A DNA stretch of 59,628 nucleotides, counting the filler. It is 6 parts of 6 records of this genome, joined end to end, with 100 filler letters (N's around TTAATTAATTAA, not from the genome) between each part and the next. Parts side by side here need not be neighbours in the genome. Positions count along the whole stretch, not along the records: positions 1 to 6,821 come from SRR2962707_2715; 5 more parts are not named here. One strand, given 5' to 3'. A program made the position numbers and the translations under genes. The notes beneath the pieces were generated by a model. It saw only the letters and a program-made list of their open reading frames with translations. It searched no databases and had not been told where the DNA came from. Below, piece by piece: positions 1 through 59,584 of the stretch; position 1 is the first letter of the stretch; every line of letters starts with the position of its first letter.

Positions 1-22
1 CTCTCTCTCTCTCTCTCTCTCT
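1..22. repeat. (CT)n microsatellite at contig end
   Basis: 11 perfect CT units at the start of the window; likely cause of the assembly break. Confidence 0.95.
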
Positions 23-357
23 TGAGTCTCCCTCTCAAACTTCAGTGTGTGCGTCTGTGTCTGCGTCTCTCCGCCTTGCTGCCTTGGTCTCGCGAGCTAC
101 ACTCGGCGAATCTCGACGTTAGTTCTCGAGTGCACTTTGTGTGCGGGAACAGAGTCCTGCTTTCTTTGTGTTTTGTTTGTTTTGTTTTTGTTTTACTGGT
201 TTTTGCTCTTTCAAGCTTTGTTGGCTTCGGATTTTTTTTTTTGAACAGTTTCGTAAAGTGTGACCCAGTCACAAAAGAAGAAAGTCCGAGTATCGAGGCG
301 CTTGCCTGTGTGCGCGTGTGTGCAGCCACGCAGGAGAACGACCAGAATCCTCATACC

Positions 358-2571
358 ATGATGTTGGGTGTGCGCCCTCTGAAGCTGCTGATACTCGCCG
401 CTGCTTTGCTGGGCCTTTGCACACGAAGCCTCCTCGCTGAGGCAGGTGCGAAGATGAAAGCGACTCGCACGCGCCACGAAGACGAGGGCGACGTACCTCT
501 GACGGATTTCGAGACCACTCTCGATGCCAAGGTCATGCCGACAGGCCGAGTGCCCGAAGGTGTCATCAACCCGTACGTGACGAGCTCGAAGCTCGTGACG
601 AAGAAGCGGACGATCTTGGTGAGTGCACCACCGGCAGTCGCAGAAGGCGGCGAAGCCTCTCAGATTGAGGTCAGCGTCAGCCGGTACGACACCTTCGATG
701 ACATCATGCAGCAAGTGGAGGACAAGCTCGGTGTGAAAGAGGGTGACGGAGCGTGGCGCCTTGTGTCGGCGACCACCGGGCAAACTTTGCAGGTGAAAGA
801 TCTGGGGTGGCTGGCGGATGGGTCGAACGTGCGGCTTGTTCTTCCGGGACAAGGTGACGAGCACCTGATTAGCGTGCGCACGATTTCTGTGCTGAGAAAC
901 GGTGAGGTGGACGGTGGTGTGAACTATCGGCTCACGCCCCACGACACCTGCGCTTCTGTGATTGAAGCGACTGGGCGCGACGTCGGTATTGACAAGGCTC
1001 ACATGGATGACGATCCGCAGTTGTTCGACGAAGGAGGCCTGCGTCTCACCGATGCAGATCTTGGCTGGCTTGACGATGGTGCGAAGGTGTGGATTGTGCC
1101 ATCCCACAGGTACTACTTGTGGCCCAAGTATGATGTTGGGCAAACGATTCGGATCCAGCACCCCGAGTCGCCGATCCCAGGCAAGCAAATTGAGCTCACT
1201 ACGTTGAGCAACACGCCGAAGCTCATTCAAATCGACAATTTTATGTCCGACGAAGAAATGCAACACCTCATCGATAGGGCATCGGAGCGTCTGGAGCAGT
1301 CGGTCACTGGTGCAAACGCTGACGGAACTCACACGCACCGCACCAGCACCAACGCCTGGGAAAGCAACACGGCGATTTCCAAACGTTTGATCCATCGTGC
1401 TTTCTCTCTTGCTCGCGTCCCGTACGTTTGCAAGAGCGGTGGAGATTGTGCGCGTCTCCAAGTTTTCATGCAAGATTTTCTTTGTTTTTACCCATGTTGC
1501 ATTTATCATTGGGTGCTCTGGCTCGTGCAGATACAAAGACAACCAGCGTGATGCGATCCAAATTCTTCACTACGGCCATGGAGATCGGTACATTGTTCAC
1601 ACGGACTGGTTTTCCGCTGGAGGTTATGAAGGATGGAATACGTCTGTCATTGGCAACACCAACCGCTACGCTACCGTATTCTTCTACCTCAACGACGTCG
1701 AAGCTGGGGGCCACACTGTGTTCCCGCGAGCAACGGTATGTTCCGATCGTTTCTCTGCGTCGAGACCATGTTGGTACATCTTGCCTCATCGACAGTCTCA
1801 CGCGTCTTTTGAACTCACTCGCAAAGGCTGCTCCTCCGCACGACATGACGTACACTGTGACCGAAGAGCAATGGGAGTCGCTGCCTGACGAAGCAAAAGT
1901 GATGAAAGAGTGCAAGCCTGGGTCTCCCGGCATTCATGTTCCTGCCAAAAAGGGCACAGTCAGTACAAACAATGTTGAGATGGCACATGCTTGCCGCCCG
2001 CGCTCCTGGCGCAAAGTGCTAAACGTTCTGAAACATCGTTCGTTTGTGTGTTTTCTCTGTTCACACGTCGTACAGGCAATCATCTTCTATAGTTCCGACG
2101 CTTTTGGAAATCTTGACCCTCTGTCGGAACACGGCGCCTGCCCAATAATCTCTGGCGAAAAGTGGGGGGCCAACGTGCGTTGCTTTGCTGCTGCCTTCTT
2201 GGTTTGGTCCACACGCTCTGTGTCTGTTTTCAAACTCGCAACGTCTTTCAGCTCCAGTACAAATGCAAACACAAACGCAGGTCTGGATTTGGAACTACAA
2301 GCGACCACCGATGAAGTCCAACAAGAAGAACCCGCGCGCCATATCGTTTTCATTTCACAACAAACGGCCTCAGGCAGTGGACCTTTCCTACTCTCCGGGA
2401 AAAGGCGAAGAAGACCAGTTCTTCTCGACGATCGACCCGGATGCAGAATATTCAGTTACCACCTACTCCGGTCACGGGTGGACAATAAGAGAGCATGGCA
2501 AGGACGAAGTTGTTGATCGTTTCATTGTCCCACCGAAATCGAAGGGTGTCACTTCGCTCGACATCTTGTAA
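358..2571 (+). CDS. Eukaryotic prolyl 4-hydroxylase (Fe/2OG dioxygenase), 5 exons: 358-1421, 1531-1735, 1827-1958, 2076-2174, 2281-2571 (596 aa). Architecture: signal peptide, two Ub-like repeats, P4Hc domain, VHL-beta-like C-terminal domain
   Basis: Four GT-AG introns (109, 91, 117, 106 nt) join into a 1791-nt frame. Splicing restores the P4H motifs: IQILHY..GDRYIVHTDWF (HxD), RYATVFFYLNDVEAGGHTVFP, KKGTAIIFYS, SEHGACPIISGEKWGANVWIWN (distal His and 2OG-binding Lys). N-terminus MMLGVRPLKLLILAAALLGLC is hydrophobic. Confidence 0.9.
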
Positions 2572-2729
2572 AGCGTGTCACAATGGCACTAGCCAGCACG
2601 TCTTCTGTTCGTGCCAGTTGGTTCCGGCCTCGCTGTTTCCAATGGCCATGCGTATGTTGATAAATAAATACTGTCTTGATCAAGCGCTGCGTTTATTATT
2701 AAAATACGTGTTCAAAATTATTCAAGGTG

Positions 2730-5700
2730 TTACACAGGTGATGTGCTGCGGCTCGAGTCTTCGTCAATCGGCACAAACACGCTGCCCACACTCGCGCGCA
2801 ACTCCATTCCGGATTCTCCAATACTATTGCTTAGTAATCCTTCGTCATCTTCTTGAGCATCGTGTTCCTCTGTTGCCCTGAATGAGACGAATTCCATCAC
2901 ACCAACCGGTCAGCGCATCAGAACAGCTCAGCGGTAGCCGCGAGAAAAAAAAAAAAATATGACGCACGGTTGAAGTCCGAAGTCAAGAGGTTGGCTGCGC
3001 ACAGACAAACTCCCGACACGATAGGAGTTACGAGACGGCGAGGTTTCCTCTTCGAAACGAGGGCACGGGCAGCAGCGCTTTTTTTGGCTCGCACTGGAAC
3101 CGTAAATACTTTTAAAGATGGCAGCTGTGTACCTGCATGTTTGTTGAGCAATCGCAACGGACCGCGTGTAGGTCAAACATACTGACGAACCACAAGGACA
3201 CGGTCGGACATCAAAGGAGCCATAATGCATCGGATGGCGCTCTACACGTACACGTGATCGAGTTGCCTGCGTGTGACCATCCCAACTGCTTCACATTCCG
3301 ACGCAGAGGACTCGTCTGTAATCACCATGTGCCGCAGACCCAAATGTCGGAACACCTTGAACGTGCGCATCAGAGGCGCATGCGCGGGGTCGGTGTAGGG
3401 GATTCCCATGTACCTAACGATAAAAAATCACAAGCTGGAAGTTCATAACATGCAGGTGAAGAAAATACATGAGCAGGCAATACTTCCCACTGGTACATAC
3501 GGCGAAAGGTCAATCCAACTGTTTCGCTGCTCGGGTGTTAAGGTGTCACGAATGTCTGCAATGTCTGGGTAACGTGGATAGGTTTTCTCGAGCGTCCCGA
3601 ATCCGACAAGTTTTCGTTTATCAGTCAAAAACTTTTCGAAAAGTTTCGCACTGTGTACGTCTACTTCCGCCGGGCGCTCAGACGCTGGGTAACTACCGTT
3701 CAAGTGGTTGCAAGTCGTGAAACACTGGGTAAGCGCAAGAGGCGATGCTTCAAGCGCGCCACAAAAAAAAGTTGCGGGCAGTGAATCGACAACGAGACCA
3801 GCCACGATCATTCGAAGCAGTGTCTTACCGCACGGTTTCGATGGCGCGCTTTGATAGCAGCACCAGAAGGTGATTTCGTAGCATGATTCCAGACAGCTTC
3901 CCCTTTACAAGGGCATTCCAATTCAGGTCCGCAGGGGGCTCATGTCTTTGTTCAGCGGGTCGAATAATGACAGGAAATCCGTGGCACTTTGTGTTGCACA
4001 GAATTTGAAATATCCGCTCGACCTTCTCCACCTGTCGAAGGCAGATCGGATCCTTCTTCATCACGTCCTGAGTCAGCAGATGATGGAAGTACTTGGGCGC
4101 ACTCCACTCCAGAAAGCTGACACGCTTCTCGTCAATGTATCTATGAACAGCGTCAGTGTCAAGTCAGAAAGAATATCGCCTGGGGCTCGTTTGCCACGGT
4201 GAAGGTGCACTGCGCCTGAAGTCGCACCGGTCATAGAGGCCATGCCCAAATCGTGAGGAAACCCACTTCGCCACGAAGAGCGCAAACATTATCGGCAATG
4301 CTAGATTCAGACCGTTGGTGCACTCAACGACAATCACCGTTAAGGATATGACCATGTGCGTGACGCCTCCCAGCATACTGGCAGCGCCAACAACAGCGTA
4401 AACGCCAGGGTCGACAGTGAAGTTCGAAATCGCCCTGTGTTGAATAATAACGTCAAGGATTCTGAGCGCATGATTAACGAGTCGAATCCAGCGCGCTAAG
4501 GAGCACATTCAAGTGGCTGAACAATTCGCAAGGGAAGCAACAACTCACCCCGAAGCATTGTAATGGTTGTCGTAGTATCCTTGAAGCGCCCCATCGTAGA
4601 GCTGACCAAACAGCCGTCCCATCAAGGCTCCACACATGAGTGACGGCACAAAAACACCAGCCGGGACTCCAAGTCCGAAAGTGATGCACGTCAAAAACGA
4701 AAAGAACACAAACGCGATTCCCAAAGTCGCGTCAGAAAACGCAGTATAGTAAATGGTCGAAGCGACTTCTGGTGAGTAAGAAAAGTAAAACAGCTGCTTG
4801 ATGGCGCTCTCGAATCCGGTGAACGTTAACGTTGCCAGCTGAAACACAGGAACGCAAATCATAATTTTGAGGGCCCTTTGAAACAGAAAACAGGTGGACT
4901 GCAACTAGGTGCAAGCAAAAAGTCATTGGTGCACACCTGATTGTAGTATTGCCCTTGGTCGTCTTCATCAGAGCAATAGAAGGTTACAAACGACGTCCCT
5001 TCGATGCGACGGTCTTCGGGAGGCATTGGAACGCACTCTCCAAAAAACAACGGCAGCCCGAACGCAACCAGCGAAACGAGCACCGATATGCACATTGCTT
5101 CGAGTAAACTTCGACATCTTGAGCTGTGGATATGCTTCATTCGCCACAGCAAGATCTTGTGGTTGGAAAAGTTGAACAAAGCGCCAGCAAAACCGCCAAT
5201 GACTCCGATACAAACAAACATTGGCAAGTCCCACCAATGGTAATAAAACTGCAAAGATTTATCCGTCGCAAAAGTGCCTGATGTATCAATCGTAAACCAC
5301 AGGGGCCGTTGTCATTCAAACCGAAGCGCAACGGCGCCAAATTCACCGAGCAGAGGCAACACTAGTACGAGTTCATGTTCATGACGATTTTCAAATTCTG
5401 CCCCTGTACACACCTGGGGCCGACAGGTTTGTTGCAAAACCACTTGAGTCCCAAAACCCCTCCTCATTAACCCCGGACATGATAAGCGTGGATAGAAAGC
5501 ACGCGAGAATCGTGCAGAAAAACGTCTGCGTTGTGAGATTGGGATGCCACCATGAAGCCCCCTCTTCCAGGCAAAATAGCACACCGCCAATAGGTGCACC
5601 AAACGCGGCTGACACGCCGGCTGCAGCACCACATGCAATGAAGTCAAGCTTTGCCTTGTCGTTTCGAAACTTGTCAACCTTGGACCATTTGCCAATCGTC

Positions 5701-6492
5701 GTTTTTCCCTACGAAGGCAATGGGCAGCACACACAAAAGTGAGTCGAGAGCCAATGAATGCGCTTGAATAAACCGCAAGAACTGCACTGTATTATTCACC
5801 TGCGAGATGCCGGCACCAACCACCGCGCCAGAATGGATCATTGGTCCCTCTTTGCCGACGGGAAGACCACTCGCCGATGCACCAATGACCCCCAACACTT
5901 TCATCGCTAAGGTTTTGACACGAACCGCATACTTAATCTTCACGCCATTCAACCAACACCGCACCTCTGGGATTCCCGAGCCCGCTGCGATGCGCGCCCC
6001 GAAAATTACGGTGAAGCACGCCAATATGACGAGAACCAGGTTGAAGGCGATGTAGACCATGCAGGTGACGCCAAGGTTGCGCGAGCCGGCCATCTCACTC
6101 TCGATGAGCGGGTTCACGACTTTGATAAACTTGAGGTACATGATCAGGCGCGCTGCCCACGTGATGACCACCGCCGCAAGACTCGTGAACACAGCCACTC
6201 CACACAAAAACAACCAGCGGCGGGCTTTGCTCAGGTTGGCCTTGGATTTCTTCACGCTCAGGTCCGAGATTTGCCGGAGCTGGTGGACGGCGCTGCTCAG
6301 CTCGTCGACGTCGATGCTCTCGAAGTCGACCGTGCGCTCCTCGACTTCGACAGCGCCGGTTCCGTAGGTACCGGCCCAGTTTTCATCCCGGCGCTTCGTG
6401 ATCCACCGGGTCTGGATGGGATCCAGACCGTCGTCTGTGTCGGCTGTCCCGCTCGACGCCGAGCGGCCGCGCCGGCGTCTAGCGCCACTCAT
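2730..6492 (-). CDS. CLC family chloride/proton antiporter (CLC-6/7-like) with two CBS domains. About 9 introns: 5799-5709, 5413-5278, 4936-4839, 4548-4435, 4227-4141, ~3833-3725, 3500-3414, 3251-3133, 2967-2878
   Basis: Signature motifs GSGIPE, GKEGPMIHSG, GVSAAFGAPIGGVLFCLEE, GVPAGVFVP, YAVVGAAS and GLYD are present, plus CBS2 FKVFRHLGLRHMV..VGMVTRR. All introns are GT-AG with consistent phase. Intron 6 and the last two exons are less certain; there is an alternative stop near 3242 if intron 8 is not spliced. Confidence 0.88.
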
Positions 6493-6795
6493 TGTGAGGG
6501 TCGACGCTTTGCGTCTTTGACGAGTGACCGCGAGTCTGGTCCCGTCACGCAGGCGCGTCGGCAGGAGTTCCAGAGTGCCCAGACTCTATGCGCCGGGGGT
6601 CTCCGAAGTCAAAAGAAACCGGCGAGAAAGAGAGCTGGCGAAAGAACGTGGAAAAAAAAGGCCCGTGCTTTCCAGTTCCCCACGAACGAACGGCGAAGAA
6701 AAAAAAAAAGAAAGGGACCGAAATACTCGCGGCAACGACAACGACGAACCAAAACACGGAGAGCCGAGCCACAAGTCGCAGGAGGCCAACGCAGC

Positions 6796-6821
6796 CACTC
6801 ACTCACTCACTCACTCACTCA
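6796..6821. repeat. (CACT)n microsatellite at contig end
   Basis: Tandem CACT/ACTC units running into the N gap. Confidence 0.9.
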
Positions 6822-6921
6822 NNNNNNNNNNNNNNNNNNNNNNNNNNNNNNNNNNNNNNNNNNNNTTAATTAATTAANNNNNNNNNNNNNNNNNNNNNNN
6901 NNNNNNNNNNNNNNNNNNNNN
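6822..6921. other. Artificial contig linker
   Basis: 100-nt N run with central TTAATTAATTAA (stops in all six frames); composition changes abruptly across it. Confidence 0.98.
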
Positions 6922-6950
6922 GCGGTGGTGTAGAGATCGTGAACAGGCTC

Positions 6951-12190: not shown

Positions 12191-12244
12191 GTGATCCTGT
12201 TCACCCCGGGAGCCAATAAGGATTAAAACCATCGGGAGAACACC

Positions 12245-13543
12245 ATGTTACAAAGCCTCCGTTACGGCTTGGCGGCCACGGCCCTGTTGATCACCAGCCA
12301 GAGCCATGCCGACACACCTCAACTGCCGCCACCGGAAAGCACCACTTTGTCCAAACTGCAACTGATGCAGGGCTTCCCTCCACCGCCGGACAAGCTGGTC
12401 ACCCAGGCTAATTTCAACCGTTTCCCCAATGGCCGCTGGGCACTGCATCACATGCGCGAACTGCAACCCTCACGGGGCATCGCCCGCGATCCGCTGGCGG
12501 ATGTGGCAAAGTTGAAGTACAAGGACCGCGGTCTGGGCGATCTCCGTTTCGACGACGGCAGCGGCCAGACCACCACCGTTTCCGAATGGCTTCGCGACAC
12601 CTATACCGACGCTTTCATCGTACTGCACAAGGGACGGGTGGTGTACGAGACCTACGCCGATGGCATGGATGATCAGGATCAGCACATCCTGTGGTCCGTT
12701 ACCAAATCAGTCACCGGCTTGCTGGCCGCCGACATGATTCAACGTGGCGAGCTGGACCCGGACGTCACCGTGGCCCATTACGTGCCGGAACTGAAAGACA
12801 GTGCCTGGGGTGACGCCACCGTACAACAGGTACTGGATATGACCGCCGCGGTGCGTTACCGCGAGGACTACAAGGACTTCACCTCCGACGTTTACCGCTA
12901 CGCCTTCTCTTCCGGCATTCTGCCAAAACCGAAAAACTATCAGGGTCCGGCTTCCCTTTATGAATTTCTCGCCAGCCTGACCGAGAAGAGCGGCGAGCAC
13001 GGTAAGCAGTTCACCTACCAGACGGTGCAGTCGGAAGTGGTGGCCTGGATCATCAGCAAGGCCTCCGGGCGGGACTACACCGACCTGCTGTCCGAACGTA
13101 TCTGGAGCAAGCTGGGCGCCGAACGGGATGCCTATGTTCTGGTGGATCCCCACGGCACACCGCTGGCCGGCGGCGGCATGAACGCTACTTTGCGCGACCT
13201 CGCCCGCTTCGCCGAAATGGTGCGCCGCAAAGGCCATTACAATGGTGAGCAGATGGTCAGCAAGGCCGCCATCGAGGACATCTTCAAAGGTGGCGAGCGA
13301 TCCAAATTCGAGGGCGGTGGTCTGGATTTCCGTCGGGGGCAGTCCTATCACAATCAGTGGTATCAGACCCACAACGACCATGGTGCCTTACAGGCCGCCG
13401 GCATCCATGGCCAGATGATTCATATCGATCCGCAAGCGGAACTGGTGGTGGTGAAGTTCTCTTCTCACCCGGTGGCCAGCTCCAGCTTTACCTATACCTC
13501 CACCACGGCGGCCCTCGACGCCATCACCGAAGCTCTGCAATAA
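12245..13543 (+). CDS. Secreted serine hydrolase, beta-lactamase fold, NylB (6-aminohexanoate-dimer hydrolase)-like
   Basis: Signal peptide; LMQGFPP, HILWSVTKS (SxxK), LLSERIWSKLGAE, GIHGQ motifs. Confidence 0.85.
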   Translation: MLQSLRYGLAATALLITSQSHADTPQLPPPESTTLSKLQLMQGFPPPPDKLVTQANFNRFPNGRWALHHMRELQPSRGIARDPLADVAKLKYKDRGLGDLRFDDGSGQTTTVSEWLRDTYTDAFIVLHKGRVVYETYADGMDDQDQHILWSVTKSVTGLLAADMIQRGELDPDVTVAHYVPELKDSAWGDATVQQVLDMTAAVRYREDYKDFTSDVYRYAFSSGILPKPKNYQGPASLYEFLASLTEKSGEHGKQFTYQTVQSEVVAWIISKASGRDYTDLLSERIWSKLGAERDAYVLVDPHGTPLAGGGMNATLRDLARFAEMVRRKGHYNGEQMVSKAAIEDIFKGGERSKFEGGGLDFRRGQSYHNQWYQTHNDHGALQAAGIHGQMIHIDPQAELVVVKFSSHPVASSSFTYTSTTAALDAITEALQ

Positions 13544-15657: not shown

Positions 15658-17079
15658 CTATTCGCCGGGTTCAGGGCGGGCTATACGCTGGATCACCGGG
15701 TCATCCAGGTCCCAGCCGCCGCCTATGGCGGCGGCCAGTTCCGCCGCTGCCTGCAATTGCTGGCTGGTGATGTCCAGGCGTGAGCGGCGCGCTTCCAGGG
15801 TGAGATTCTGCGCCGTGGCCACCTCCAGGAAAGACACCATGCCGGCACGGTAGCGGTTGGTGATGACGCTTTCATTCTGTTCCGCCAAGGCCAGCAGCTC
15901 ATCCTGCTGTTCCGCTTTCTCGCGAAGAATTTGCATCGTCGCCAGGGCGTCTTCCACATCGCGCAGACTGTCCAGAACGGTCTGTCTGTAGTTCGCCACC
16001 TGCTCATCGTACTGGGCCACCGCGATATCGCGGGTGGCGCGCCGGCGGCCACCATCGAACAATGTCAGCGCCAGTGACGGCCCCACCGACCAGATTCGTT
16101 GCGGCGCATCGAACAAGCCCGAGAAGGTGTCATCCTGCAAAGCGCCATAGGCGCTCAAGGTGAGATCCGGCAACCAGGCGGTCTGGGCCACGCCGATCAG
16201 CGCATTGGCCTGGGCCACGCCCCGTTCCGCCACCACCACATCCGGGCGGCGCGCGATCAACACCGATGGCAGGGCCGCCGGCAGTGCCGGCAACAACGGC
16301 AGGTCATCGGTGGCGGCGATGCTGAACGACACCGGCGCCACGCCCAACAAGGCCGCCAGCGCATTTTCTTCCTGGGCTCGTTGTTGTTGCAGATCATAGA
16401 GCTGCGTGCGCAGAGACTGGCGCTGGGTTTCCGCCTGGATCACATCGGACCGGGACACGATACCGGCGTTGTACTGATTGCGAGTCAACTCCGCCGAGCG
16501 ATCGTATGCCGCCATGGTCAGTTCGAGAATATCGCGCTGGCGATCCAGCGCGCGTACCCGAACATAGCCCTGCACCACCGCTACCTGAAGGGTCAGTCGG
16601 GCAGCGGCGATGTCGGCGGCGCTGGCGGCCAGACCAGCACGCTCCGCTTCCACCTGGCGCCGCACCCGCCCCCAAAGATCCGGCGCCCAGCTGATATCCA
16701 GACGGCCACTGAACAAGTTGCCGGGGTCGGTATCGCTGCCGCCGCTACGAGTACCGTTCACGGACGCGTCCAGTCGCGGGCTGTACTCACCACGGGCCAG
16801 ACGCCACTGCGCCTCGGCGGCGCGGAAACGGGCTTCCGCCTGGGCCAGGGTTTGGCTGGCCTGATCCGCGCGCCGGATCAGATCGGTCAGCACCGGATCG
16901 TCAAACGCTTCCCACCAGGTACCCTGGGCCACCCAGGGTTGCTCCGGCATGGTTCGCCAGCCATCCTGGTATTGGAATCGCGCCGGAATGGCACTCTCCG
17001 GCGTGCGATAGTCCGGTCCCAGGGTGCAGCCGGCAAGGGCCAGCAAGCACAGCAGGGAAGTGGCGGATAGACGCATCAT
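15658..17079 (-). CDS. RND efflux outer-membrane lipoprotein (NodT/OprM family)
   Basis: Lipobox LAGC, then TLGPDYRTP, WWEAFDDPVL, PDLWGRVRR, RRPDV. Confidence 0.92.
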   Translation of the reverse strand: MMRLSATSLLCLLALAGCTLGPDYRTPESAIPARFQYQDGWRTMPEQPWVAQGTWWEAFDDPVLTDLIRRADQASQTLAQAEARFRAAEAQWRLARGEYSPRLDASVNGTRSGGSDTDPGNLFSGRLDISWAPDLWGRVRRQVEAERAGLAASAADIAAARLTLQVAVVQGYVRVRALDRQRDILELTMAAYDRSAELTRNQYNAGIVSRSDVIQAETQRQSLRTQLYDLQQQRAQEENALAALLGVAPVSFSIAATDDLPLLPALPAALPSVLIARRPDVVVAERGVAQANALIGVAQTAWLPDLTLSAYGALQDDTFSGLFDAPQRIWSVGPSLALTLFDGGRRRATRDIAVAQYDEQVANYRQTVLDSLRDVEDALATMQILREKAEQQDELLALAEQNESVITNRYRAGMVSFLEVATAQNLTLEARRSRLDITSQQLQAAAELAAAIGGGWDLDDPVIQRIARPEPGE

Positions 17080-17095
17080 TACAGGCCTCTTCTCT

Positions 17096-18984
17096 TCATA
17101 CCGACTCCAGAGGGTTATCGCCTGACCGGCGGCGCAGGGTGCGCTGGCGCAATGTTTCCAGATACAGATAGATCACCGGCGTGGTGTACAGCGTCAACAG
17201 CTGACTGAACGCCAAACCGCCGATGATGGTAATCCCGAGCGGCTGGCGCAGCTCTGATCCTTCGCCGAGTCCCAGTACCAACGGCACCGCGCCGAGCAGA
17301 CCGGCCAGGTTGGTCATCAGAATCGGCCGTAATCGCAACAACGCCGCTTGACGGATCGCCGCCAGCGGGGCCAGGCCATCCCGCCGCTGCGCTTCCAGGG
17401 CAAAGTCGATCATCAGAATGGCGTTCTTCATCACGATGCCGATCAGCAGGAACAATCCCAACAGCGCGATCAGGCTGAATGGCGTATCACTGATACGCAG
17501 CGCCAACAAAGCGCCAATACCGGCGGAAGGCAAAGTGGAAAGAATGGTAAGCGGGTGCAGGGTGCTTTCGTACAGCATGCCCAACACCATGTACACCGCC
17601 AGCAGTACCGACAGAATGAGCAGAGGCTGACTGAGGTTGCCTTCGAAATTGGGCCGGTCGGAACCCGGCCCGGCATACACGCTCGGCGGCAGCATAATGT
17701 CGTTGAGCGCCTTCTGGATCGCTTCTTCCGCCTGTATCGGCGTGACCCCGGGGGCCAGCGCATACCCTATCCCCGTGGCGGCGAACTGAGAGTCGTGGCG
17801 AATGCGGTCGTTGGTCAGTCCGTATTCCCAGGTCGCGAAGGTGGACAGCGGCACGCGCGCGCCGTCGTCGGTCAACACTTCCAGTTGCTCCAGTACCGAA
17901 GGTTGTTCGGTGTAGCGCGGCAATAACTCCATCACCACCCGGTACTGGTTCAATTCATCGTAGAGCGTGGCCACCTGCCGCTGGGAAAAGGAGTTGTTCA
18001 ACACCGACGCCACCGTCGCCATGTCGACCCCGTGCACCCGCGCCGCTTCGCGATCAATATCCAGTACCACCTGTTGCGCTTCCTCGTCACCGGCGGAGTC
18101 CACGTCCACCAGTTCCGGCAGTTTCTGCATCGCTTCCGATGCCTTGCGTGACCAGATATCCAGCAACTCCAGGGAATCCGAACGCAACACCAACTCATAA
18201 TCACTGCGACTGAACCCTCCCGATAGCCGGATATCCTGATCCACCATCAGAAACATCATGCCACCGGGAACATGAGGCGCCTTGGCCCGCAGCCGGTTGA
18301 CCACCTCTTGAGCCGACACCCCCCGTTCCGCCAGCGGCTTGAGGTTGATGGTGAGCTGGGCATTGGTGATACCGCCATCGCCACCGCTGGTGCCGGTAAC
18401 GTCCTGCACCGCCGGATCGTCCATGATCAATTGCCGGAACACTTCGATCTTCGGCTGCATCAACTGGAATGAAAAACCGTCGTCACCGCGGACGAAGCCG
18501 CGAATTTGTCCGGTGTCCTGCGGCGGTAGCGTGGTTTTCGGGATCGCCACATACAGCCACACATTGACCGCCACCACCGCCAGCAAGGTAAGCAGGGTAA
18601 TCAGCCGATGACGCAACGCCCAGTCCAGACTGGCGGCATAGGCGTGTTGCAGGGAATGGAACGCGGCCTCACTGCGCCGGGCCAGGGCCGAGGGCGCGCC
18701 GGTGGCTTTTCCCCGCAACCAAAGCGCGCACAGGCTGGGAGTCAGGGTTAGCGAGACCAACAAGGAAATCAGCATCGCCGCCGCCAGGGTAATGGAGAAC
18801 TCGCGGAACAAACGCTCGACAATGCCGCCCATGAACAGGATCGACACGAACACCACCACCAGCGCCACATTCATCGCCAGCAGTGTGAAGCCCACTTCGC
18901 CAGCCCCCTTGATCGCCGCCTGCAACGGCGGCAGCCCGTTCTCGATATGCCGCTCGATGTTTTCCAGCACCACGATGGCATCGT
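17096..18984 (-). CDS. RND efflux permease (MdtB/MdtC-like), 5'-truncated by contig end
   Basis: DAIVVLENI, GIVMKNAILMIDFA, RLRPILMT motifs. Confidence 0.9.
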
Positions 18985-19084
18985 NNNNNNNNNNNNNNNN
19001 NNNNNNNNNNNNNNNNNNNNNNNNNNNNTTAATTAATTAANNNNNNNNNNNNNNNNNNNNNNNNNNNNNNNNNNNNNNNNNNNN
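18985..19084. other. Artificial contig linker
   Basis: 100-nt N/TTAATTAATTAA spacer. Confidence 0.98.
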
Positions 19085-47265: not shown

Positions 47266-49167
47266 CTAGTCAGGGATGGTGAACACCTGTCCAGGATAGA
47301 TCAGGTCCGGATTGCGGATGGCGTCGCGATTGGCCTCAAAGACGCGGACATAGGACGTACCTTCGCCATAACGGTCCCGCGCAATGGCCCAGAGCGTGTT
47401 GCCTGGCTGCACGGTGATGGCGCGAACGGCGGCAGATCCCGCTGCCTCCTCTGCCGCGGCGTCGAGCAATCGCTGCGCTTCGCGCAAAAAGGGGCTTTCG
47501 ACGCGGGATGTCACCGTGCCGCGCGGGTCCAGCTGATCAACACGCAGCTGGTAGGTGCCGCTCTTCACATCCTGCAGGGTCGCGCGCCAACGGCCGTCCG
47601 GCTGGATCGGTGCCGTGCTTATGGGCCGGTTGTCCAGATAGATCCGCACCGACTCGGTGCCTTTGCCGCGTCCGGTCAGAACCACACCGCCGTCGGCCTC
47701 ATAAGTGATCGCGTCAAGCGCGACCTCGGCCAGGGCGACGGGCCGTGCAGACGGGTCGGTCGGCGGCTGCAGCACGTCGATCCCGGCCTGGTTAGACAGG
47801 ATCACCGCCGGCGCCCGGGCTGGAACCGGTGCCGTTGGTGGTGCGGGCGCAACGGGGTCTGCGTCGCGGGCCACGGCCATGGCCGGTGCCTCTGGCGCGC
47901 CTGTGGCTGCTACCGGCAGGGGTGTTACGCCTATGGCCACGAGGGCGCCTACAGGGTCAGGTTTGGTGATTCCGCTGTCAGCCGCTGTAATCGCCGGGGT
48001 TGCGGTCTGTTCGGGCGAGGTGGCCTGCACAGCTTGGAGCACGGTTCCGGGGACGGCCTGCCCCGGGTCTGCCTGTCCGGCTTCGGGGGCGATAGTCCCC
48101 TCTGACGGCTCTGCCGCGTCAAGGGTGCCTGTGACAGGCGGGGCTGGTTCCGGCCTCAGGCCCGCGACGGTCATGTCGCCCGTATCAGCACTGGTCGATT
48201 GGGATTCAGGCGTGGCCTGCGCGAGTTCGGATGAGTCCGAAGACGCGGGTTGCGGCGATGTGATGTCGGCGGACCCAGTCGCCACTTCGGTTTCCGCTTC
48301 CGGCCCGGTGGCCACGGACGCGGCGGAACGCTGCCCTTCGCTTAGGAGCGTTACCGCTGCATCACCGGGAATTTCGGCGCGCGCGATCGCGGACGGCGCG
48401 GGCGTGCCTGCGACACTTGTGATGTCCTGGAATGATTGCGCGGCCCCTGCTGTGTTGCCGGATGGCGCGGGCACAGGTGCGCCGCTATCGGGCTGTTGCA
48501 CCGCGTTGCTAAGGGCGACCGCTAGGCTGGGCGCAAGGATAACCTCGTCCAGCGACAGGCGCGGCCCCGTTGCTGACGGCGACCGCAGGCTGATTACGCG
48601 GGCCAGGTCGCTGGCAGGAAGGCTTAGGAACATCACGAACCGTCCATCGGCATCGGCCCGCGTGGTTTCTGCAAGGATGCCGTCCACCAGCACGTCGATG
48701 ACGGTGTCAGGTTCGCCCACCCCGGCAACAAGGGTTTCGCCGTCCTGCTGAACGCGCACGATGTCAAAGCTGGGCAGACGCAGGTCTGTCCCGCCCGGGT
48801 CAATCTGTGCATCACTGCTGGCGGCGGGGGCCGTTTCGGCCTGGGGTTCGGAAGTGGGGGCCGGGGTCGGTTGCGCCGGCGCATCGGCGCGGGCGGTTGC
48901 TTCGGGGACATGGTCTGTAACCTCGGTCACCGGACCGGCAACAGGTTCATCCGTTGCGGGCGCGGAAACAGGCGAGGACGCAAGTTCAGAAACGGTTGTA
49001 GACGCTGGGACCGGACCGCCGTCTGGCAGCGTGGCGGCGTCATCGCCCCCGGTGTCCAAGATCGCGGACCGGCTCAGGAACAGCATGCCAGCGAGCATGA
49101 TGGCCAGCGCCGCCGTCGCACCCAATGCGACACCAGCCGCGCCCTGAAATTTTCTATGTCCGGTCAT
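47266..49167 (-). CDS. LysM peptidoglycan-binding protein with Ig-like domains and Ala/Pro/Thr-rich linkers
   Basis: C-terminal ITVQPGNTLWAIARDRYGEG...IRNPDLIYPGQVFTIP; N-terminal TM. Confidence 0.88.
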   Translation of the reverse strand: MTGHRKFQGAAGVALGATAALAIMLAGMLFLSRSAILDTGGDDAATLPDGGPVPASTTVSELASSPVSAPATDEPVAGPVTEVTDHVPEATARADAPAQPTPAPTSEPQAETAPAASSDAQIDPGGTDLRLPSFDIVRVQQDGETLVAGVGEPDTVIDVLVDGILAETTRADADGRFVMFLSLPASDLARVISLRSPSATGPRLSLDEVILAPSLAVALSNAVQQPDSGAPVPAPSGNTAGAAQSFQDITSVAGTPAPSAIARAEIPGDAAVTLLSEGQRSAASVATGPEAETEVATGSADITSPQPASSDSSELAQATPESQSTSADTGDMTVAGLRPEPAPPVTGTLDAAEPSEGTIAPEAGQADPGQAVPGTVLQAVQATSPEQTATPAITAADSGITKPDPVGALVAIGVTPLPVAATGAPEAPAMAVARDADPVAPAPPTAPVPARAPAVILSNQAGIDVLQPPTDPSARPVALAEVALDAITYEADGGVVLTGRGKGTESVRIYLDNRPISTAPIQPDGRWRATLQDVKSGTYQLRVDQLDPRGTVTSRVESPFLREAQRLLDAAAEEAAGSAAVRAITVQPGNTLWAIARDRYGEGTSYVRVFEANRDAIRNPDLIYPGQVFTIPD

Positions 49168-49277
49168 GTGGTCCCTTTTGCCCCGCCTTAACCCGGGCTG
49201 CGGCGCCCTGTACGGTTGAGAGTGTATAACAAGGGCGTTAACAGCGGTCAAAACGCCAAATTCAGTCAGGATCCCCC

Positions 49278-49829
49278 ATGTCCATCAAATCCATCTGTGT
49301 CTATTGTGGCAGCCGTTCCGGTGCAAATCCCGCCTTTTCACAAGAGGCCGAGGCCCTGGGGCGCGGCATCGCGCAGGCAGGCTGGCGTCTGGTCTATGGG
49401 GCGGGTGATGTTGGCCTGATGGGCGTGGTCGCGCGCGCAGCGCAGGATGCGGGGGCGGACACCTTTGGCGTCATCCCCGAACATCTACTGAAATGGGAGG
49501 TGGGCAAAACCGACCTGACCCGGTTCATTGTCACCGAAACGATGCACGAACGCAAAAAAGTCATGTTGATGAACGCCGACGCCATCGTGGTTATGCCAGG
49601 CGGTGCCGGGTCGCTTGACGAATTCTTTGAGGTGCTGACATGGCGACAGCTGGGCCTGCATGACAAACCAATCGTGCTGATGAACGTAGCAGGATACTGG
49701 GACCCGCTGCGTGGCCTGATCGATCATGTGGTCGCACAGGGTTTTGCCGATGAAAGCCTGAAAGGCTTTGTTCAGAGCGAAGCCTGCGCCGCGAGCGTTC
49801 TTGACGCCCTGCGCCGCACGCTTTCCTGA
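49278..49829 (+). CDS. LOG family protein (TIGR00730-type Rossmann fold)
   Basis: ICVYCGS, LVYGAG, MHERK, PGGAGSLDE. Confidence 0.92.
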   Translation: MSIKSICVYCGSRSGANPAFSQEAEALGRGIAQAGWRLVYGAGDVGLMGVVARAAQDAGADTFGVIPEHLLKWEVGKTDLTRFIVTETMHERKKVMLMNADAIVVMPGGAGSLDEFFEVLTWRQLGLHDKPIVLMNVAGYWDPLRGLIDHVVAQGFADESLKGFVQSEACAASVLDALRRTLS

Positions 49830-56959: not shown

Positions 56960-57613
56960 TCAGACGATCGGCCAAGGCTCAAAGAACGACTGCGCAAACA
57001 AAGGCACCCCTTGGGGCAGTGATTTCTGGAACCCCGCGCGCGCTGAAATGCGCCCGTACCAACCAGCCACCCGTGGATGCGCGTCCAGCTTGGCAAAGTG
57101 TTGCGCCATATAAACCGCTTGCCCCACGCCGATATCCGCCGCCGTAAAACCGCTACTCAACAAATAGTCGCGCCCCTCCAGCCGCGCCTCAATCGCATCA
57201 TAGCATTTCACCACCCTAGCGGCTTCCAGCTTCATTACAATCGGGCTGCGCATGCTGTCTTCACGCAGGGCGATATGCTGTTGGGTCAGTGCCGCGCAAT
57301 GCTGCGACAGGGTTTCGGCGAAATGCATCCAGACCAGCCACGCCATTCGGTCCTTTGATCCGGGCATCCGGCCAAGGTCATCGGGGCTGAACCGCTCGCA
57401 AAGATATTCGCCAATGGCCCCTGTTTCAAACATGGTCTGCCCGTCGATCTCCAGCGATGGTACCCGCCCCGCAGGCGAAATCGCCAGATAACCGGGATCA
57501 CGCAGGGATTTGTCGAACGGATGCACCACCACCTCGAATGGCACGTCCAGTTCATTCAACAGCCACAATGTCCGCATCGAACGGGTCTGTTCCGCATGGT
57601 GCAGCGTGATCAT
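56960..57613 (-). CDS. Glutathione S-transferase family protein
   Basis: RSMRTLWLL, SPAGRVP, FETGAI, FTAADI. Confidence 0.9.
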   Translation of the reverse strand: MITLHHAEQTRSMRTLWLLNELDVPFEVVVHPFDKSLRDPGYLAISPAGRVPSLEIDGQTMFETGAIGEYLCERFSPDDLGRMPGSKDRMAWLVWMHFAETLSQHCAALTQQHIALREDSMRSPIVMKLEAARVVKCYDAIEARLEGRDYLLSSGFTAADIGVGQAVYMAQHFAKLDAHPRVAGWYGRISARAGFQKSLPQGVPLFAQSFFEPWPIV

Positions 57614-59559: not shown

Positions 59560-59584
59560 GCGCCTCTCCTTCGGTCCGTTCTAT

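Follow-up and report, generated by a model that had tools for sequence, protein, structure and literature searches.

Introduction

Animal oxygen sensing centres on the recognition of hydroxyproline (Hyp) by pVHL, which most PROTAC drugs also use as their handle. The signature residues of its pocket, N78, W88, Y98, S111, H115 and W117, include Ser111 and His115, which hydrogen-bond the hydroxyl group of hydroxyproline. The alpha subunit of animal collagen prolyl 4-hydroxylase (P4H) has an N-terminal, helical (TPR-like) peptide-substrate-binding domain, which is unrelated to VHL. The DPP-IV-type enzymes are proline-specific peptidases that act on Xaa-Pro, with no requirement for hydroxyproline. 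VHL is treated as an animal component in the literature that was found; the HIF/PHD/VHL pathway was not found in protists, according to work cited in PMC9618697, and the accessory protein of the type X retron is described in PMC7736814 as a bacterial VHL-beta protein.

The protist locus reported here lies in a stretch of 59,628 nt (the window). As judged from its sequence and modelled fold, the C-terminal domain of the encoded protein is a genuine member of the VHL-beta family fused to a P4H.

Structure and Splicing of the P4H-VHL Gene

The gene comprises five exons on the + strand (358-2571) and encodes a protein of 596 aa, as read from the sequence and checked by script (Table 1). The CDS of 1,791 nt is in frame with a single, terminal stop codon, all four introns are bounded by GT..AG, and no ATG was seen in the sequence between 241 and 357. 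The coding part of exon 5 (2281-2568, 96 aa) contains the end of the P4H fold (VWIWNY), ~12 linker residues and then the VHL-beta domain; its residues 1-20 were modelled with a pLDDT of ~51-53. One intron-free contig of 2,024 nt in the public run X1 was found to equal the gene with 0 mismatches, with the four junctions joined exactly and precisely 1422-1530, 1735/6-1826, 1959-2075 and 2175-2280 left out. Because this contig spans 2174/2281 without an intron, exon 5 and the P4H exons belong to one spliced molecule, and the 2174/2281 junction assumed in the preliminary description is real, 2174 being joined to 2281 with 0 mismatches. The 'RNA?' label of X1, the single run found to contain the gene, is a guess, and it is the intron-less contig itself that gives evidence of splicing. 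A CLC gene lies next to this gene, and its first exon is 31-51% identical to ClC-6/7-like proteins of many eukaryotes.

Table 1. Features of the P4H-VHL locus, in window coordinates
Feature	Position	Strand	Content and evidence
5' UTR (minimum extent)	235..357	+	X1 contig starts 65 nt upstream of 300
Exon 1	358..1421	+	Signal-peptide-like N-terminus, two beta-grasp domains, start of P4H; sequence and X1 contig
Intron 1	1422..1530	+	GT..AG; 109 nt absent from X1 contig between 1421 and 1531
Exon 2	1531..1735	+	P4H core with iron ligands His378 and Asp380 (VHTDWF)
Intron 2	1736..1826	+	GT..AG; 91 nt absent from X1 contig, cut +1
Exon 3	1827..1958	+	P4H domain, variable insert region; script check and X1 contig
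Intron 3	1959..2075	+	GT..AG; 117 nt absent from X1 contig
Exon 4	2076..2174	+	P4H C-terminal strands, distal His486, 2-oxoglutarate-binding Lys496 (EHGACPIISGEKW)
Intron 4	2175..2280	+	GT..AG; 106 nt absent from X1 contig between 2174 and 2281
Exon 5 start	2281..2337	+	Final P4H strand (VWIWNY) and short basic linker; alignment A1
VHL-beta domain	2338..2568	+	aa 520-596; seven predicted strands; sequence, profile and fold searches
Pocket-equivalent codon N527	2359-2361	+	
Pocket-equivalent codon Y537	2389-2391	+	
Pocket-equivalent codon F548	2422-2424	+	
Pocket-equivalent codon T561	2461-2463	+	
Pocket-equivalent codon H565	2473-2475	+	
Pocket-equivalent codon W567	2479-2481	+	
Stop codon TAA	2569..2571	+	Read from sequence, script-checked
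3' UTR	2572..2681	+	AATAAA-like run at ~2664-2676; X1 contig ends at 2681

Catalytic Part and N-Terminus of the Protein

The gene product is a predicted prolyl 4-hydroxylase of the collagen/plant/algal type of the secretory pathway. The catalytic residues HxD...H...K are intact (H378, D380, H486 and K496), exon 2 alone matched Pfam 2OG-FeII_Oxy_3 (PF13640) with 27.6 bits against a cut-off of 27, and a homologous motif of Cr-P4H-1 aligns to the exon 4 motif EHGACPIISGEKW. When a profile of the fusion clade was searched against the PDB, Cr-P4H-1 from Chlamydomonas (2jig) was the best match (E=9e-41), and the Bacillus anthracis P4H (5e-29), human C-P4H alpha-2 (4e-23) and P4H-TM (8e-23) were also found. 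All oxygenase matches of this profile were collagen-, plant-, algal- or bacterial-type P4H or P4H-TM; PHD/EglN chains were absent from the 34 PDB sequences at E<=1 in this general search with the clade profile.

The signal-peptide-like N-terminus that had been noted previously was seen again: aa 2-27 are hydrophobic (mean Kyte-Doolittle up to 2.2) and are followed by charged residues, the signal peptide (aa 1-~28) being assigned by hydrophobicity alone. Relatives have either a signal peptide or a membrane anchor at the N-terminus, and the P4H-VHL protein is presumably lumenal. Two beta-grasp (DCX/CIDE-N-like) domains, at aa ~84-161 and 171-258, are encoded by exon 1. In the AF2 model, a pLDDT of ~90 was obtained for aa 171-310, and the first beta-grasp copy was modelled at low confidence (pLDDT 40-67). 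For aa ~167-258, VIA-align gave Z=9.4 with CIDE-N and Z=8.7-8.9 with DCX.

Assignment of the C-Terminal Domain

Scanning of exon 5 with Pfam had been proposed as a check of the VHL assignment, and VHL (PF01847) was indeed the only match (E=0.0025), although its 18.2 bits fell short of the 21-bit cut-off. With phmmer, human pVHL was ranked first in the PDB, at an E-value of only 0.3, and 36 matches at E<=1e-3 were obtained over 1.84 billion representatives (best non-self E=4.9e-45). When 22 of these 36 relatives were scanned with Pfam, 19 were at or over the VHL cut-off, two were sub-threshold and one had no match; scores for Pfam VHL reached up to 346 bits. A word-index protein search with exon 5 gave none at E<=0.01 among 24 candidates, this method being too insensitive, whereas the full HMMER scan succeeded. 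A profile of eight domains including that of the window (A4) matched pVHL at E=2.7e-10, with the next non-VHL chain at E=0.47, and the A1 profile, also including the window domain, matched pVHL at E=3.4e-5.

The AF2 model of the domain (pLDDT 76.3) contains seven strands. In the Foldseek search the top match was pVHL (3ztd_C, E=4.8e-5, prob 1.00, TMq 0.65), and of 70 matches at E<=1e-3, pVHL was present in every row among the matches listed. With VIA-align over 48,161 chains, the two best chains were both pVHL, the first with Z=10.3 and an rmsd of 2.1 across 77 residues, the second with Z=9.9. At Z 9.5, the lumenal domain of HGSNAT is statistically level with pVHL, and because it lies within 1 Z unit of it, the fold alone is unspecific. 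The top ESM Atlas clusters were 'VHL beta domain-containing protein' (score 0.97). Because the relatives, the profile and the AlphaFold model all point to pVHL, the VHL identity was accepted despite the sub-cut-off Pfam score. The fusion of a P4H to VHL-beta stated in the preliminary description is thus upheld (by the splicing contig, the profile E=2.7e-10 and the VIA Z=10.3), and the structural match to pVHL whose absence would have refuted it was obtained (AlphaFold model, Foldseek E=4.8e-5 and VIA Z=10.3).

An alpha domain, a BC-box and a Cul2 box are absent from exon 5, in which Pfam found nothing else and the stop follows 29 residues past W67, the W117-equivalent; the model is all-beta through the final residue of the protein. 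The earlier reading that no VHL alpha domain or BC-box is present agrees with this, as does the earlier view that an E3 adaptor is unlikely, for which the signal-peptide-like N-terminus also speaks. Because the alpha domain is missing, the P4H-VHL protein has no E3-ligase role, and its VHL-beta domain stands alone.

It is extremely improbable that the fusion is an artefact, whether through an erroneous gene model, chimerism of the contig or chance resemblance of the last exon to VHL. Such an origin would fit the sub-threshold score of exon 5 by itself (18.2 vs 21 bits), the assembly of the window from several joined contigs and the guessed RNA label of X1. However, one 0-mismatch contig covers all five exons with the introns gone, the P4H-VHL gene is well away from the contig joint (6823-6922), the layout of a P4H with a C-terminal VHL-beta domain recurs in at least 20 independent proteins of other origin, and VHL was the common answer of the profile, fold and language-model searches.

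Distribution of the Fusion and of the VHL-Beta Family

The survey of P4H+VHL architectures that had been suggested yielded at least 20 further P4H proteins with a VHL-beta domain, all in one clade of the P4H tree and one of them from a labyrinthulomycete. In this tree, the 24 VHL-bearing P4Hs were all found within one supported set of 31 rows (SH-aLRT 97), the VHL label required 5 changes as compared with 21.5 in shuffles, and the spliced window protein was placed inside the fusion clade. The fusion is therefore not a one-off, as it had been taken to be, but an architecture that an entire P4H clade conserves. Automatic annotation already shows it: the architecture is visible in databases, one ESM Atlas cluster being auto-named '2OG-Fe(II) oxygenase superfamily/VHL beta domain-containing protein'. 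TgPHYb of Toxoplasma was considered as an orthologue and rejected, since PMC6437050 describes it as PHD-like, with a C-terminal catalytic domain, an upstream 'D2' and no C-terminal VHL. No paper on a P4H-VHL or DPP-IV-VHL fusion was found in the literature search. The main text of PMC4522959, on prokaryotic prolyl oligopeptidase architectures, does not contain 'VHL', and PMC11321763 is indexed for PF01847, a term absent from its main text; the supplements of both may bear on the question.

An independent bacterial sample was collected with Pfam's own VHL model, and the single protein P0022 served as query in the related-locus search. A VHL-beta domain was present in 41 of 301 genomes of Planctomycetota, and 21 of 30 listed planctomycete loci combined VHL with DPPIV_N, 20 of these also matching Peptidase_S9. 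Arrays of 9-12 VHL-beta copies were seen in bacteria and protists. No P4H ORF (P4H HMM, E<=1e-3) was detected in 16 bacterial VHL-beta loci of 5.8-21.7 kb with a flank of up to 10 kb, nor, at the same threshold, in 38 loci of ~3 kb, a weak negative given their almost nil flank. With a P4H in 0 of 54 bacterial loci, a general P4H-VHL link is without neighbourhood support. The idea put forward earlier, that the locus reflects an ancestral P4H/VHL partnership preceding HIF, gained no support: the enzyme is by its best PDB match of the collagen/plant/algal type and not PHD/EglN, and none of the 54 bacterial VHL-beta loci, 38 of them nearly without flank, had an adjoining P4H.

Pocket Residues and Proposed Function

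In the phmmer alignment of exon 5 to pVHL, the equivalences were W88 to Y37, Y98 to F48, S111 to T61, H115 to H65 and W117 to W67 (add 500 for protein numbers), that is, the same Y, F, T, H and W that had been read by eye. The HMMER alignments place N, Y, F, T, H and W at N78, W88, Y98, S111, H115 and W117; four of these six signature positions are identical or Ser-to-Thr, and two are aromatic-for-aromatic. The pVHL pocket residues were found to be the most conserved columns across the whole VHL-beta family. Among 20 other P4H fusions, the equivalents of N78, W88 and H115 were N, W and H, each in 20/20, and those of Y98, S111 and W117 were F15/Q3/Y2, T16/S4 and W17/F3, respectively. The corresponding counts in 133 domains of 31 other proteins were N 129, W 110, Y 75 (plus F 10), T 111 (plus S 18), H 112 and W 122. 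All 23 DPP-IV-fused bacterial domains kept N, W, Y, T/S, H and W (23/23 each), and the His was missing in only 4 of 21 other bacterial domains, whose partners are non-peptidase (two sulfatases, a SASA esterase and an LRR protein).

Because the pocket columns are the most conserved and the domain recurs on proline-acting enzymes, the binding of Pro/Hyp peptides by the VHL-beta domain is indirectly supported. We incline slightly towards the reading that it is a Pro/Hyp peptide-binding module that would tether the P4H, probably to hydroxylated residues, and thus make it a processive writer-reader. The domain would bind Pro- or Hyp-containing stretches through the hydroxyproline pocket of pVHL (here Tyr, Phe, Thr, His and Trp), and, with a short linker between it and the catalytic domain, would keep the enzyme on proline-rich secretory proteins. 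Already-hydroxylated residues would most probably be gripped, with Hyp preferred over Pro, and neighbouring prolines may then be modified processively by writer plus reader. Several observations stand against such a reader: of all the fusions, the window domain departs most from the canonical form, with a Tyr at the W88 position (0/20 other fusions), and by itself it stays below the Pfam cut-off; the Phe at the Y98 position of most fusions means that the Tyr hydroxyl of pVHL is missing there; and some VHL-beta partners are unrelated to proline (sulfatase, LRR, SAM-TIR, caspase and calpain).

The domain could instead recruit the unmodified proline-rich substrate and not the product, releasing the chain on hydroxylation, in the role of the separate peptide-substrate-binding domain of animal collagen P4H. 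The DPP-IV-type peptidase fusions in 21/30 listed planctomycete loci are consistent with this, as are Y98 to Phe in 15/20 fusions and W88 to Tyr in the window, by which the pocket differs from the Hyp-specific one. However, Thr/Ser and His are kept in 20/20 fusions and in 23/23 DPP-IV fusions, and a purely hydrophobic proline pocket hardly explains the strict keeping of two polar residues; we consider substrate recruitment somewhat unlikely.

Conservation of the pocket residues could also be structural and not ligand-related. The domain would then be a general beta-sandwich for protein contacts, oligomerisation, carbohydrate binding or stability, without Pro/Hyp specificity, in which these residues hold the fold. 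The partners are diverse (sulfatase, SASA esterase, LRR, SAM-TIR, caspase, calpain, PKD/SdrD_B and a T9SS sorting domain), similar sandwiches occur in HGSNAT (lumenal domain, Z 9.5), PepT2 (extracellular domain, Z 7.4) and CBM20 (Z 6.6), and the function of the prokaryotic VHL beta domain is given as unknown in PMC7736814. That such a general role is the whole explanation appears improbable, however, given that the top conserved columns are the ligand pocket of pVHL, including the polar Thr/Ser and His, that the His was lost precisely in the four non-peptidase fusions, as expected of a ligand contact rather than a core residue, and that two unrelated classes of proline-acting enzymes (P4H and DPP-IV) recruited VHL-beta independently.

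Evolutionary Implications

The data suggest that the VHL-type binding module arose long before animal oxygen sensing. If the domain is a Pro/Hyp-binding module, it is conceivable, and we put it forward tentatively, that the Hyp pocket of pVHL did not originate in animals but is the ancestral function of a widespread pre-metazoan reader of Pro/Hyp peptides. Bacteria and protists would then couple the module to enzymes that modify prolines or cleave at them, the hosts being a secretory P4H in SAR protists and DPP-IV or other peptidases in Planctomycetota and relatives; animal pVHL would be the reader with an added elongin-binding alpha domain, and the window enzyme would be a natural single-chain hydroxyproline writer-reader. 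The P4H-fused domain of 80 residues and its counterpart on bacterial DPP-IV offer two easily expressed test cases for pre-animal Hyp/Pro reading. If it is true, the origin of the pVHL pocket would be explained, the making of hydroxyproline-rich secretory proteins by protists would gain a writer-reader logic, and new natural Hyp-binding scaffolds would be at hand. If no Pro/Hyp peptide is bound, the strict conservation of the pocket from bacteria to eukaryotes needs another explanation.

Comparison with Known Systems

Among the P4Hs, the closest solved catalytic domain is that of Cr-P4H-1 and the plant/algal enzymes (2jig and 3gze), with which the window protein shares HxD...H...K and, as predicted, secretory targeting. 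Cr-P4H-1 is a single catalytic domain, whereas the window clade adds an N-terminal beta-grasp domain, present in two copies in the window protein, and a C-terminal VHL-beta domain; many green-lineage P4H relatives have a C-terminal ShK domain (PF01549) in place of VHL-beta. The animal collagen P4H alpha subunit (catalytic domain 7zsc) likewise unites in one chain a P4H and a separate module that would hold proline-rich chains, but the module of the window protein is a C-terminal beta sandwich, and no sign of a PDI beta subunit was seen. The database proteins P0017, P0029, P0037, P0039, P0040, P0043, P0044 and P0051, and the 'Prolyl 4-hydroxylase subunit alpha-1' of Hondaea fermentalgiana (P0047), share both the P4H+VHL architecture and the P4H clade, although identity between the window protein and these database entries is just 30-35% over 348-425 aligned residues, and the Cys-rich insert present in the P0017/P0029 subgroup is missing from it.

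Bacterial VHL-beta proteins have the family and the conserved pocket in common with the window protein, and in them, too, the domain is an accessory module on a larger protein; their partners differ from P4H and include an IHF-like DNA-binding domain, DPP-IV, sulfatase and metallopeptidase. With pVHL (beta domain ~63-154), the window domain shares fold and family, the signature N...W...Y...P...(S/T)Y.GH.W and, within it, the hydroxyl-binding Ser/Thr-His pair and Trp117, while Trp88 is replaced by Tyr and Tyr98 by Phe. The window protein has no alpha domain, BC-box or Cul2 box and hence no means of elongin/cullin recruitment, and, bearing a signal peptide (by hydrophobicity), it would not be cytosolic or nuclear. 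Finally, pVHL acts in trans on the product of PHD/EglN, whereas the window domain is covalently attached to the hydroxylase itself.

Gene structure and genomic surroundings

The prolyl 4-hydroxylase (P4H)-VHL gene is located on the first contig of the window (1-6822, GC about 0.51), and its five exons form a coding sequence of 1,791 nt for a protein of 596 amino acid residues, with every intron of the GT..AG type. The preliminary description had joined the last exon to the P4H exons across 2174|2281. This junction was confirmed in X1, the sole public sequencing run with this stretch, whose 2,024-nt contig begins about 65 nt upstream of position 300, ends at 2681, just beyond an AATAAA-like run, and shows 0 mismatches while lacking exactly the four introns. 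X1 was labelled RNA by guess only, and its contig is taken as a spliced molecule because it is intron-free.

The window is made up of six contigs, with five N-run joints carrying the spacer TTAATTAATTAA at 6866, 19029, 39537, 46573 and 53877. The first contig is eukaryotic and contains two intron-bearing genes, the P4H-VHL gene and a gene for a ClC-6/7-like chloride transporter. Since the best database relatives of the latter share only 31-51% identity, the source organism of this contig is without a close sequenced relative in the collection. The later contigs have a GC of about 0.60-0.63 and bacterial-type genes at the places sampled; given the eukaryotic first contig, the source of the window is therefore mixed or contaminated.

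Features of the window with their coordinates (nt)
Feature	Position	Strand	Remarks
Exons of the P4H-VHL gene	358-1421, 1531-1735, 1827-1958, 2076-2174, 2281-2571	+	sequence reading, script check
Beta-grasp domain, copies 1 and 2	607-840 and 868-1131	+	aa ~84-161 and 171-258; tandem, upstream of P4H domain
ClC-6/7-like chloride transporter gene	~3240-6492	-	several introns; Voltage_CLC and CBS-like ORF pieces
First exon of ClC-6/7-like gene	5800-6492	-	
First joint (N run)	6823-6922		spacer TTAATTAATTAA
Beta-lactamase-family protein	12227-13543	+	
OEP (outer-membrane efflux protein)	15658-17172	-	
AcrB/ACR_tran	17096-19036	-	
LysM	47266-49284	-	
Biotin carboxylase	57610-59580	-	

Catalytic and N-terminal regions

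The catalytic part has the three iron ligands and the lysine that binds 2-oxoglutarate (H378, D380, H486 and K496). When a fusion-protein profile was compared with solved structures, Chlamydomonas Cr-P4H-1 ranked first (E=9e-41); next came bacterial P4H, human collagen P4H alpha-2 and P4H-TM. Judged by its sequence, the window enzyme is a P4H of the collagen/plant/algal type and apparently not of the HIF-PHD type. The N-terminus shows a hydrophobic, signal-peptide-like stretch; related proteins start with a signal peptide or have a membrane anchor there. The window protein has a beta-grasp domain in two copies, compared with one in the fusion-clade relatives; the second copy was well modelled (pLDDT about 90) and resembles CIDE-N, ELMO RBD and doublecortin domains (Z 8.7-9.4), whereas the first was poorly modelled. 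In one subclade of relatives (the P0017/P0029 subgroup), the P4H domain carries a Cys-rich insert of ~60-70 residues (CVGW...DCDP...C...C.C...C...C...C), which is absent from the window protein.

Identity of the C-terminal VHL-beta domain

Exon 5 alone (96 aa) gave VHL as its sole Pfam match, at a sub-threshold score (18.2 bits against a 21-bit cut-off, E=0.0025), and pVHL was the top match among PDB sequences at only E=0.3. When 1.84 billion representatives were scanned exhaustively with exon 5 (HMMER), 36 proteins were returned at E<=1e-3; among the 22 of these compared with Pfam, 19 reached the VHL cut-off, 2 were sub-threshold and 1 had no VHL match, and the highest score was 346 bits, in 10 stretches. 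The match to pVHL was E=3.4e-5 with a 7-sequence profile and E=2.7e-10 with an 8-domain profile, for which the next unrelated chain stood at E=0.47. The AlphaFold2 model of the domain (pLDDT 76.3, seven strands) gave 70 Foldseek matches at E<=1e-3, with pVHL in every listed row (best E=4.8e-5, TMq 0.65), and a fold scan of 48,161 chains that did not depend on Foldseek placed pVHL first (Z=10.3, rmsd 2.1 over 77 residues). Because the HGSNAT lumenal domain scored close to pVHL in the same scan (Z 9.5), the fold alone is not decisive; a language-model search of the ESM Atlas also pointed to VHL.

The HMMER alignments bore out the pocket equivalences read by eye, namely Y537, F548, T561, H565 and W567 for pVHL W88, Y98, S111, H115 and W117; the numbering and the hydroxyproline-holding role of these residues are those we take from pVHL-HIF structures. 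The protein stops 29 residues after W567, so the alpha domain and BC-box are absent, as had been proposed. The observation of a P4H-VHL fusion is correct and robust. A stand-alone ORF of 86 aa (P0001), which starts at an internal Met and is 94% identical to the VHL-beta domain of the window, is probably exon 5 of a close relative's orthologue called without splicing.

Distribution of the fusion among P4H proteins

A profile built from four fusion proteins recovered 99 P4H relatives at E<=1e-10. Precomputed Pfam annotation showed PF13640 with PF01847 in 8 of them, and a local HMM of the C-terminal domain detected VHL-beta in 18; together with P0028 and P0033, two relatives from the exon-5 HMMER scan, 20 P4H proteins carry the domain, and three further relatives match the HMM weakly. 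One fusion protein is the 'Prolyl 4-hydroxylase subunit alpha-1' of the thraustochytrid Hondaea fermentalgiana. Atlas clusters point to Cercozoa and diatoms, and one is automatically named '2OG-Fe(II) oxygenase superfamily/VHL beta domain-containing protein'.

The catalytic domain by itself was used for a quick maximum-likelihood tree (LG+G4; 96 rows, with six short ones dropped). Every one of the 24 rows with VHL-beta, the window included, fell within one supported set of 31 (SH-aLRT 97), and the VHL label required 5 changes, compared with an average of 21.5 after shuffling. Seven rows of this set were without VHL-beta. Three are shorter, P0042 (432 aa), P0049 (370 aa) and P0058 (410 aa), and P0058 stops within the catalytic domain in the alignment; P0048 shows part of VHL-beta there as a remnant; and P0062, P0064 and P0100 may truly lack the domain. 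Animal P4H-TM was placed outside the set, as were the P4Hs of the green lineage, many of which carry an ShK domain at the C-terminus. The window protein is divergent, sharing 30-35% identity with the others across 348-425 aligned residues, and the fusion of P4H with VHL-beta is a family trait.

Pocket conservation and bacterial VHL-beta domains

At the pVHL-equivalent positions, the 20 other P4H fusions had Asn at N78, Trp at W88 and His at H115 (each 20/20), with F15/Q3/Y2 at Y98, T16/S4 at S111 and W17/F3 at W117. Among 133 domains from 31 other proteins, the corresponding counts were N 129, W 110, Y 75 plus F 10, T 111 plus S 18, H 112 and W 122. On these alignments, the pocket residues are a signature of the VHL-beta family.

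An independent bacterial sample was drawn with Pfam's own VHL model. VHL-beta was found in 41 of 301 genomes of Planctomycetota, the phylum of an Aureliella MAG, and the commonest architecture among the 30 loci listed was a fusion with a DPP-IV-type peptidase (21 loci with DPPIV_N, 20 of them also with Peptidase_S9); the rest were sulfatase (2), SASA esterase (1), LRR protein (1) and VHL-only or cut-off ORFs (5). DPP-IV enzymes (family S9B) cleave after proline. In these fusions (L026-L030, L032-L037, L039-L042, L044-L049, also L013 and L024), the VHL domain lies ~120-340 residues from the open-frame start, right before the main DPPIV_N match. Partners in other genomes included a metallopeptidase (M90/ATLF-like), a TAP-like alpha/beta-hydrolase and a caspase.

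In the sample of 44 domains, all six signature positions were kept in the 23 DPP-IV-fused domains (with Thr in 22 and Ser in 1 at the Ser111 position), and the only domains without the His were four of the 21 others, fused to sulfatase+SGSH_C (L019, L054), SASA esterase (L053) and LRR (L051). These have Ala (three) or Asn (one) in its place and retain N, W, T and W. Kept with peptide-handling partners and lost with others, the His behaves like a ligand contact, not a core residue.

VHL-beta also occurs with proline-unrelated partners (SAM-TIR, LRR, sulfatase, calpain and caspase). Further architectures, represented by P0009, P0031, L017, P0026 and P0007, were SAM+TIR+VHL (three cases), 2xVHL+calpain, VHL+caspase (C14), VHL+T9SS sorting domain and VHL+PKD+SdrD_B; some look immune or cell-death-type, and others secreted and adhesin-like. 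Twelve large relatives (P0002-P0006, P0008, P0010, P0011, P0014, P0016, P0018 and P0023; 1,700-2,140 aa) have an N-terminal half with 5-12 VHL-beta domains in tandem; in P0002, Pfam recognizes nothing in the ~1,000-residue C-terminal half, whose end is formed by hydrophobic segments.

Putative role and relation to HIF signalling

Because the pocket is a family signature, with which the bacterial DPP-IV fusions agree, we infer that VHL-beta is a module for proline- or hydroxyproline-containing peptides. It could keep the catalytic domain attached to secretory substrates rich in proline, and might grip the hydroxylated product so that neighbouring prolines would be hydroxylated processively. The invariance of the hydroxyl-binding Thr/His pair among the fusions favours binding of the hydroxylated product. 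Several observations count against this reading: the window domain is the least canonical fusion, with Tyr where all others have Trp and a score below the Pfam cut-off; the Tyr98 position is Phe in most P4H fusions; and VHL-beta also has the proline-unrelated partners listed above. The putative peptide-binding interpretation is plausible, with indirect support.

A search of openly available papers, supplements apart, turned up no publication that describes VHL fused to P4H or to DPP-IV; the P4H-VHL architecture can already be seen in automatic annotation and appears to be undescribed in print. PMC7736814 reports a retron-associated protein that contains a VHL beta domain and states that the function of such prokaryotic domains is unknown, and PMC9002001 analyzes a hypothetical protein of bacterial origin in which a VHL domain occurs. 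PMC9618697 cites earlier work according to which the HIF/PHD/VHL pathway is not found in choanoflagellates or other protists, and itself reports a VHL homologue in Salpingoeca.

No P4H ORF was found near bacterial VHL-beta genes in 16 loci with flanks of up to 10 kb, nor in 38 further loci of about 3 kb, whose shortness makes this a weak negative. Since the hydroxylase, in addition, appears to lie on a different branch from the HIF-PHDs, the suggestion that a P4H/VHL partnership predates HIF signalling is not supported as stated. The ancient element looks to be the reader module rather than its pairing with P4H, and the origin of hydroxyproline reading becomes directly testable with small, easily expressed domains.
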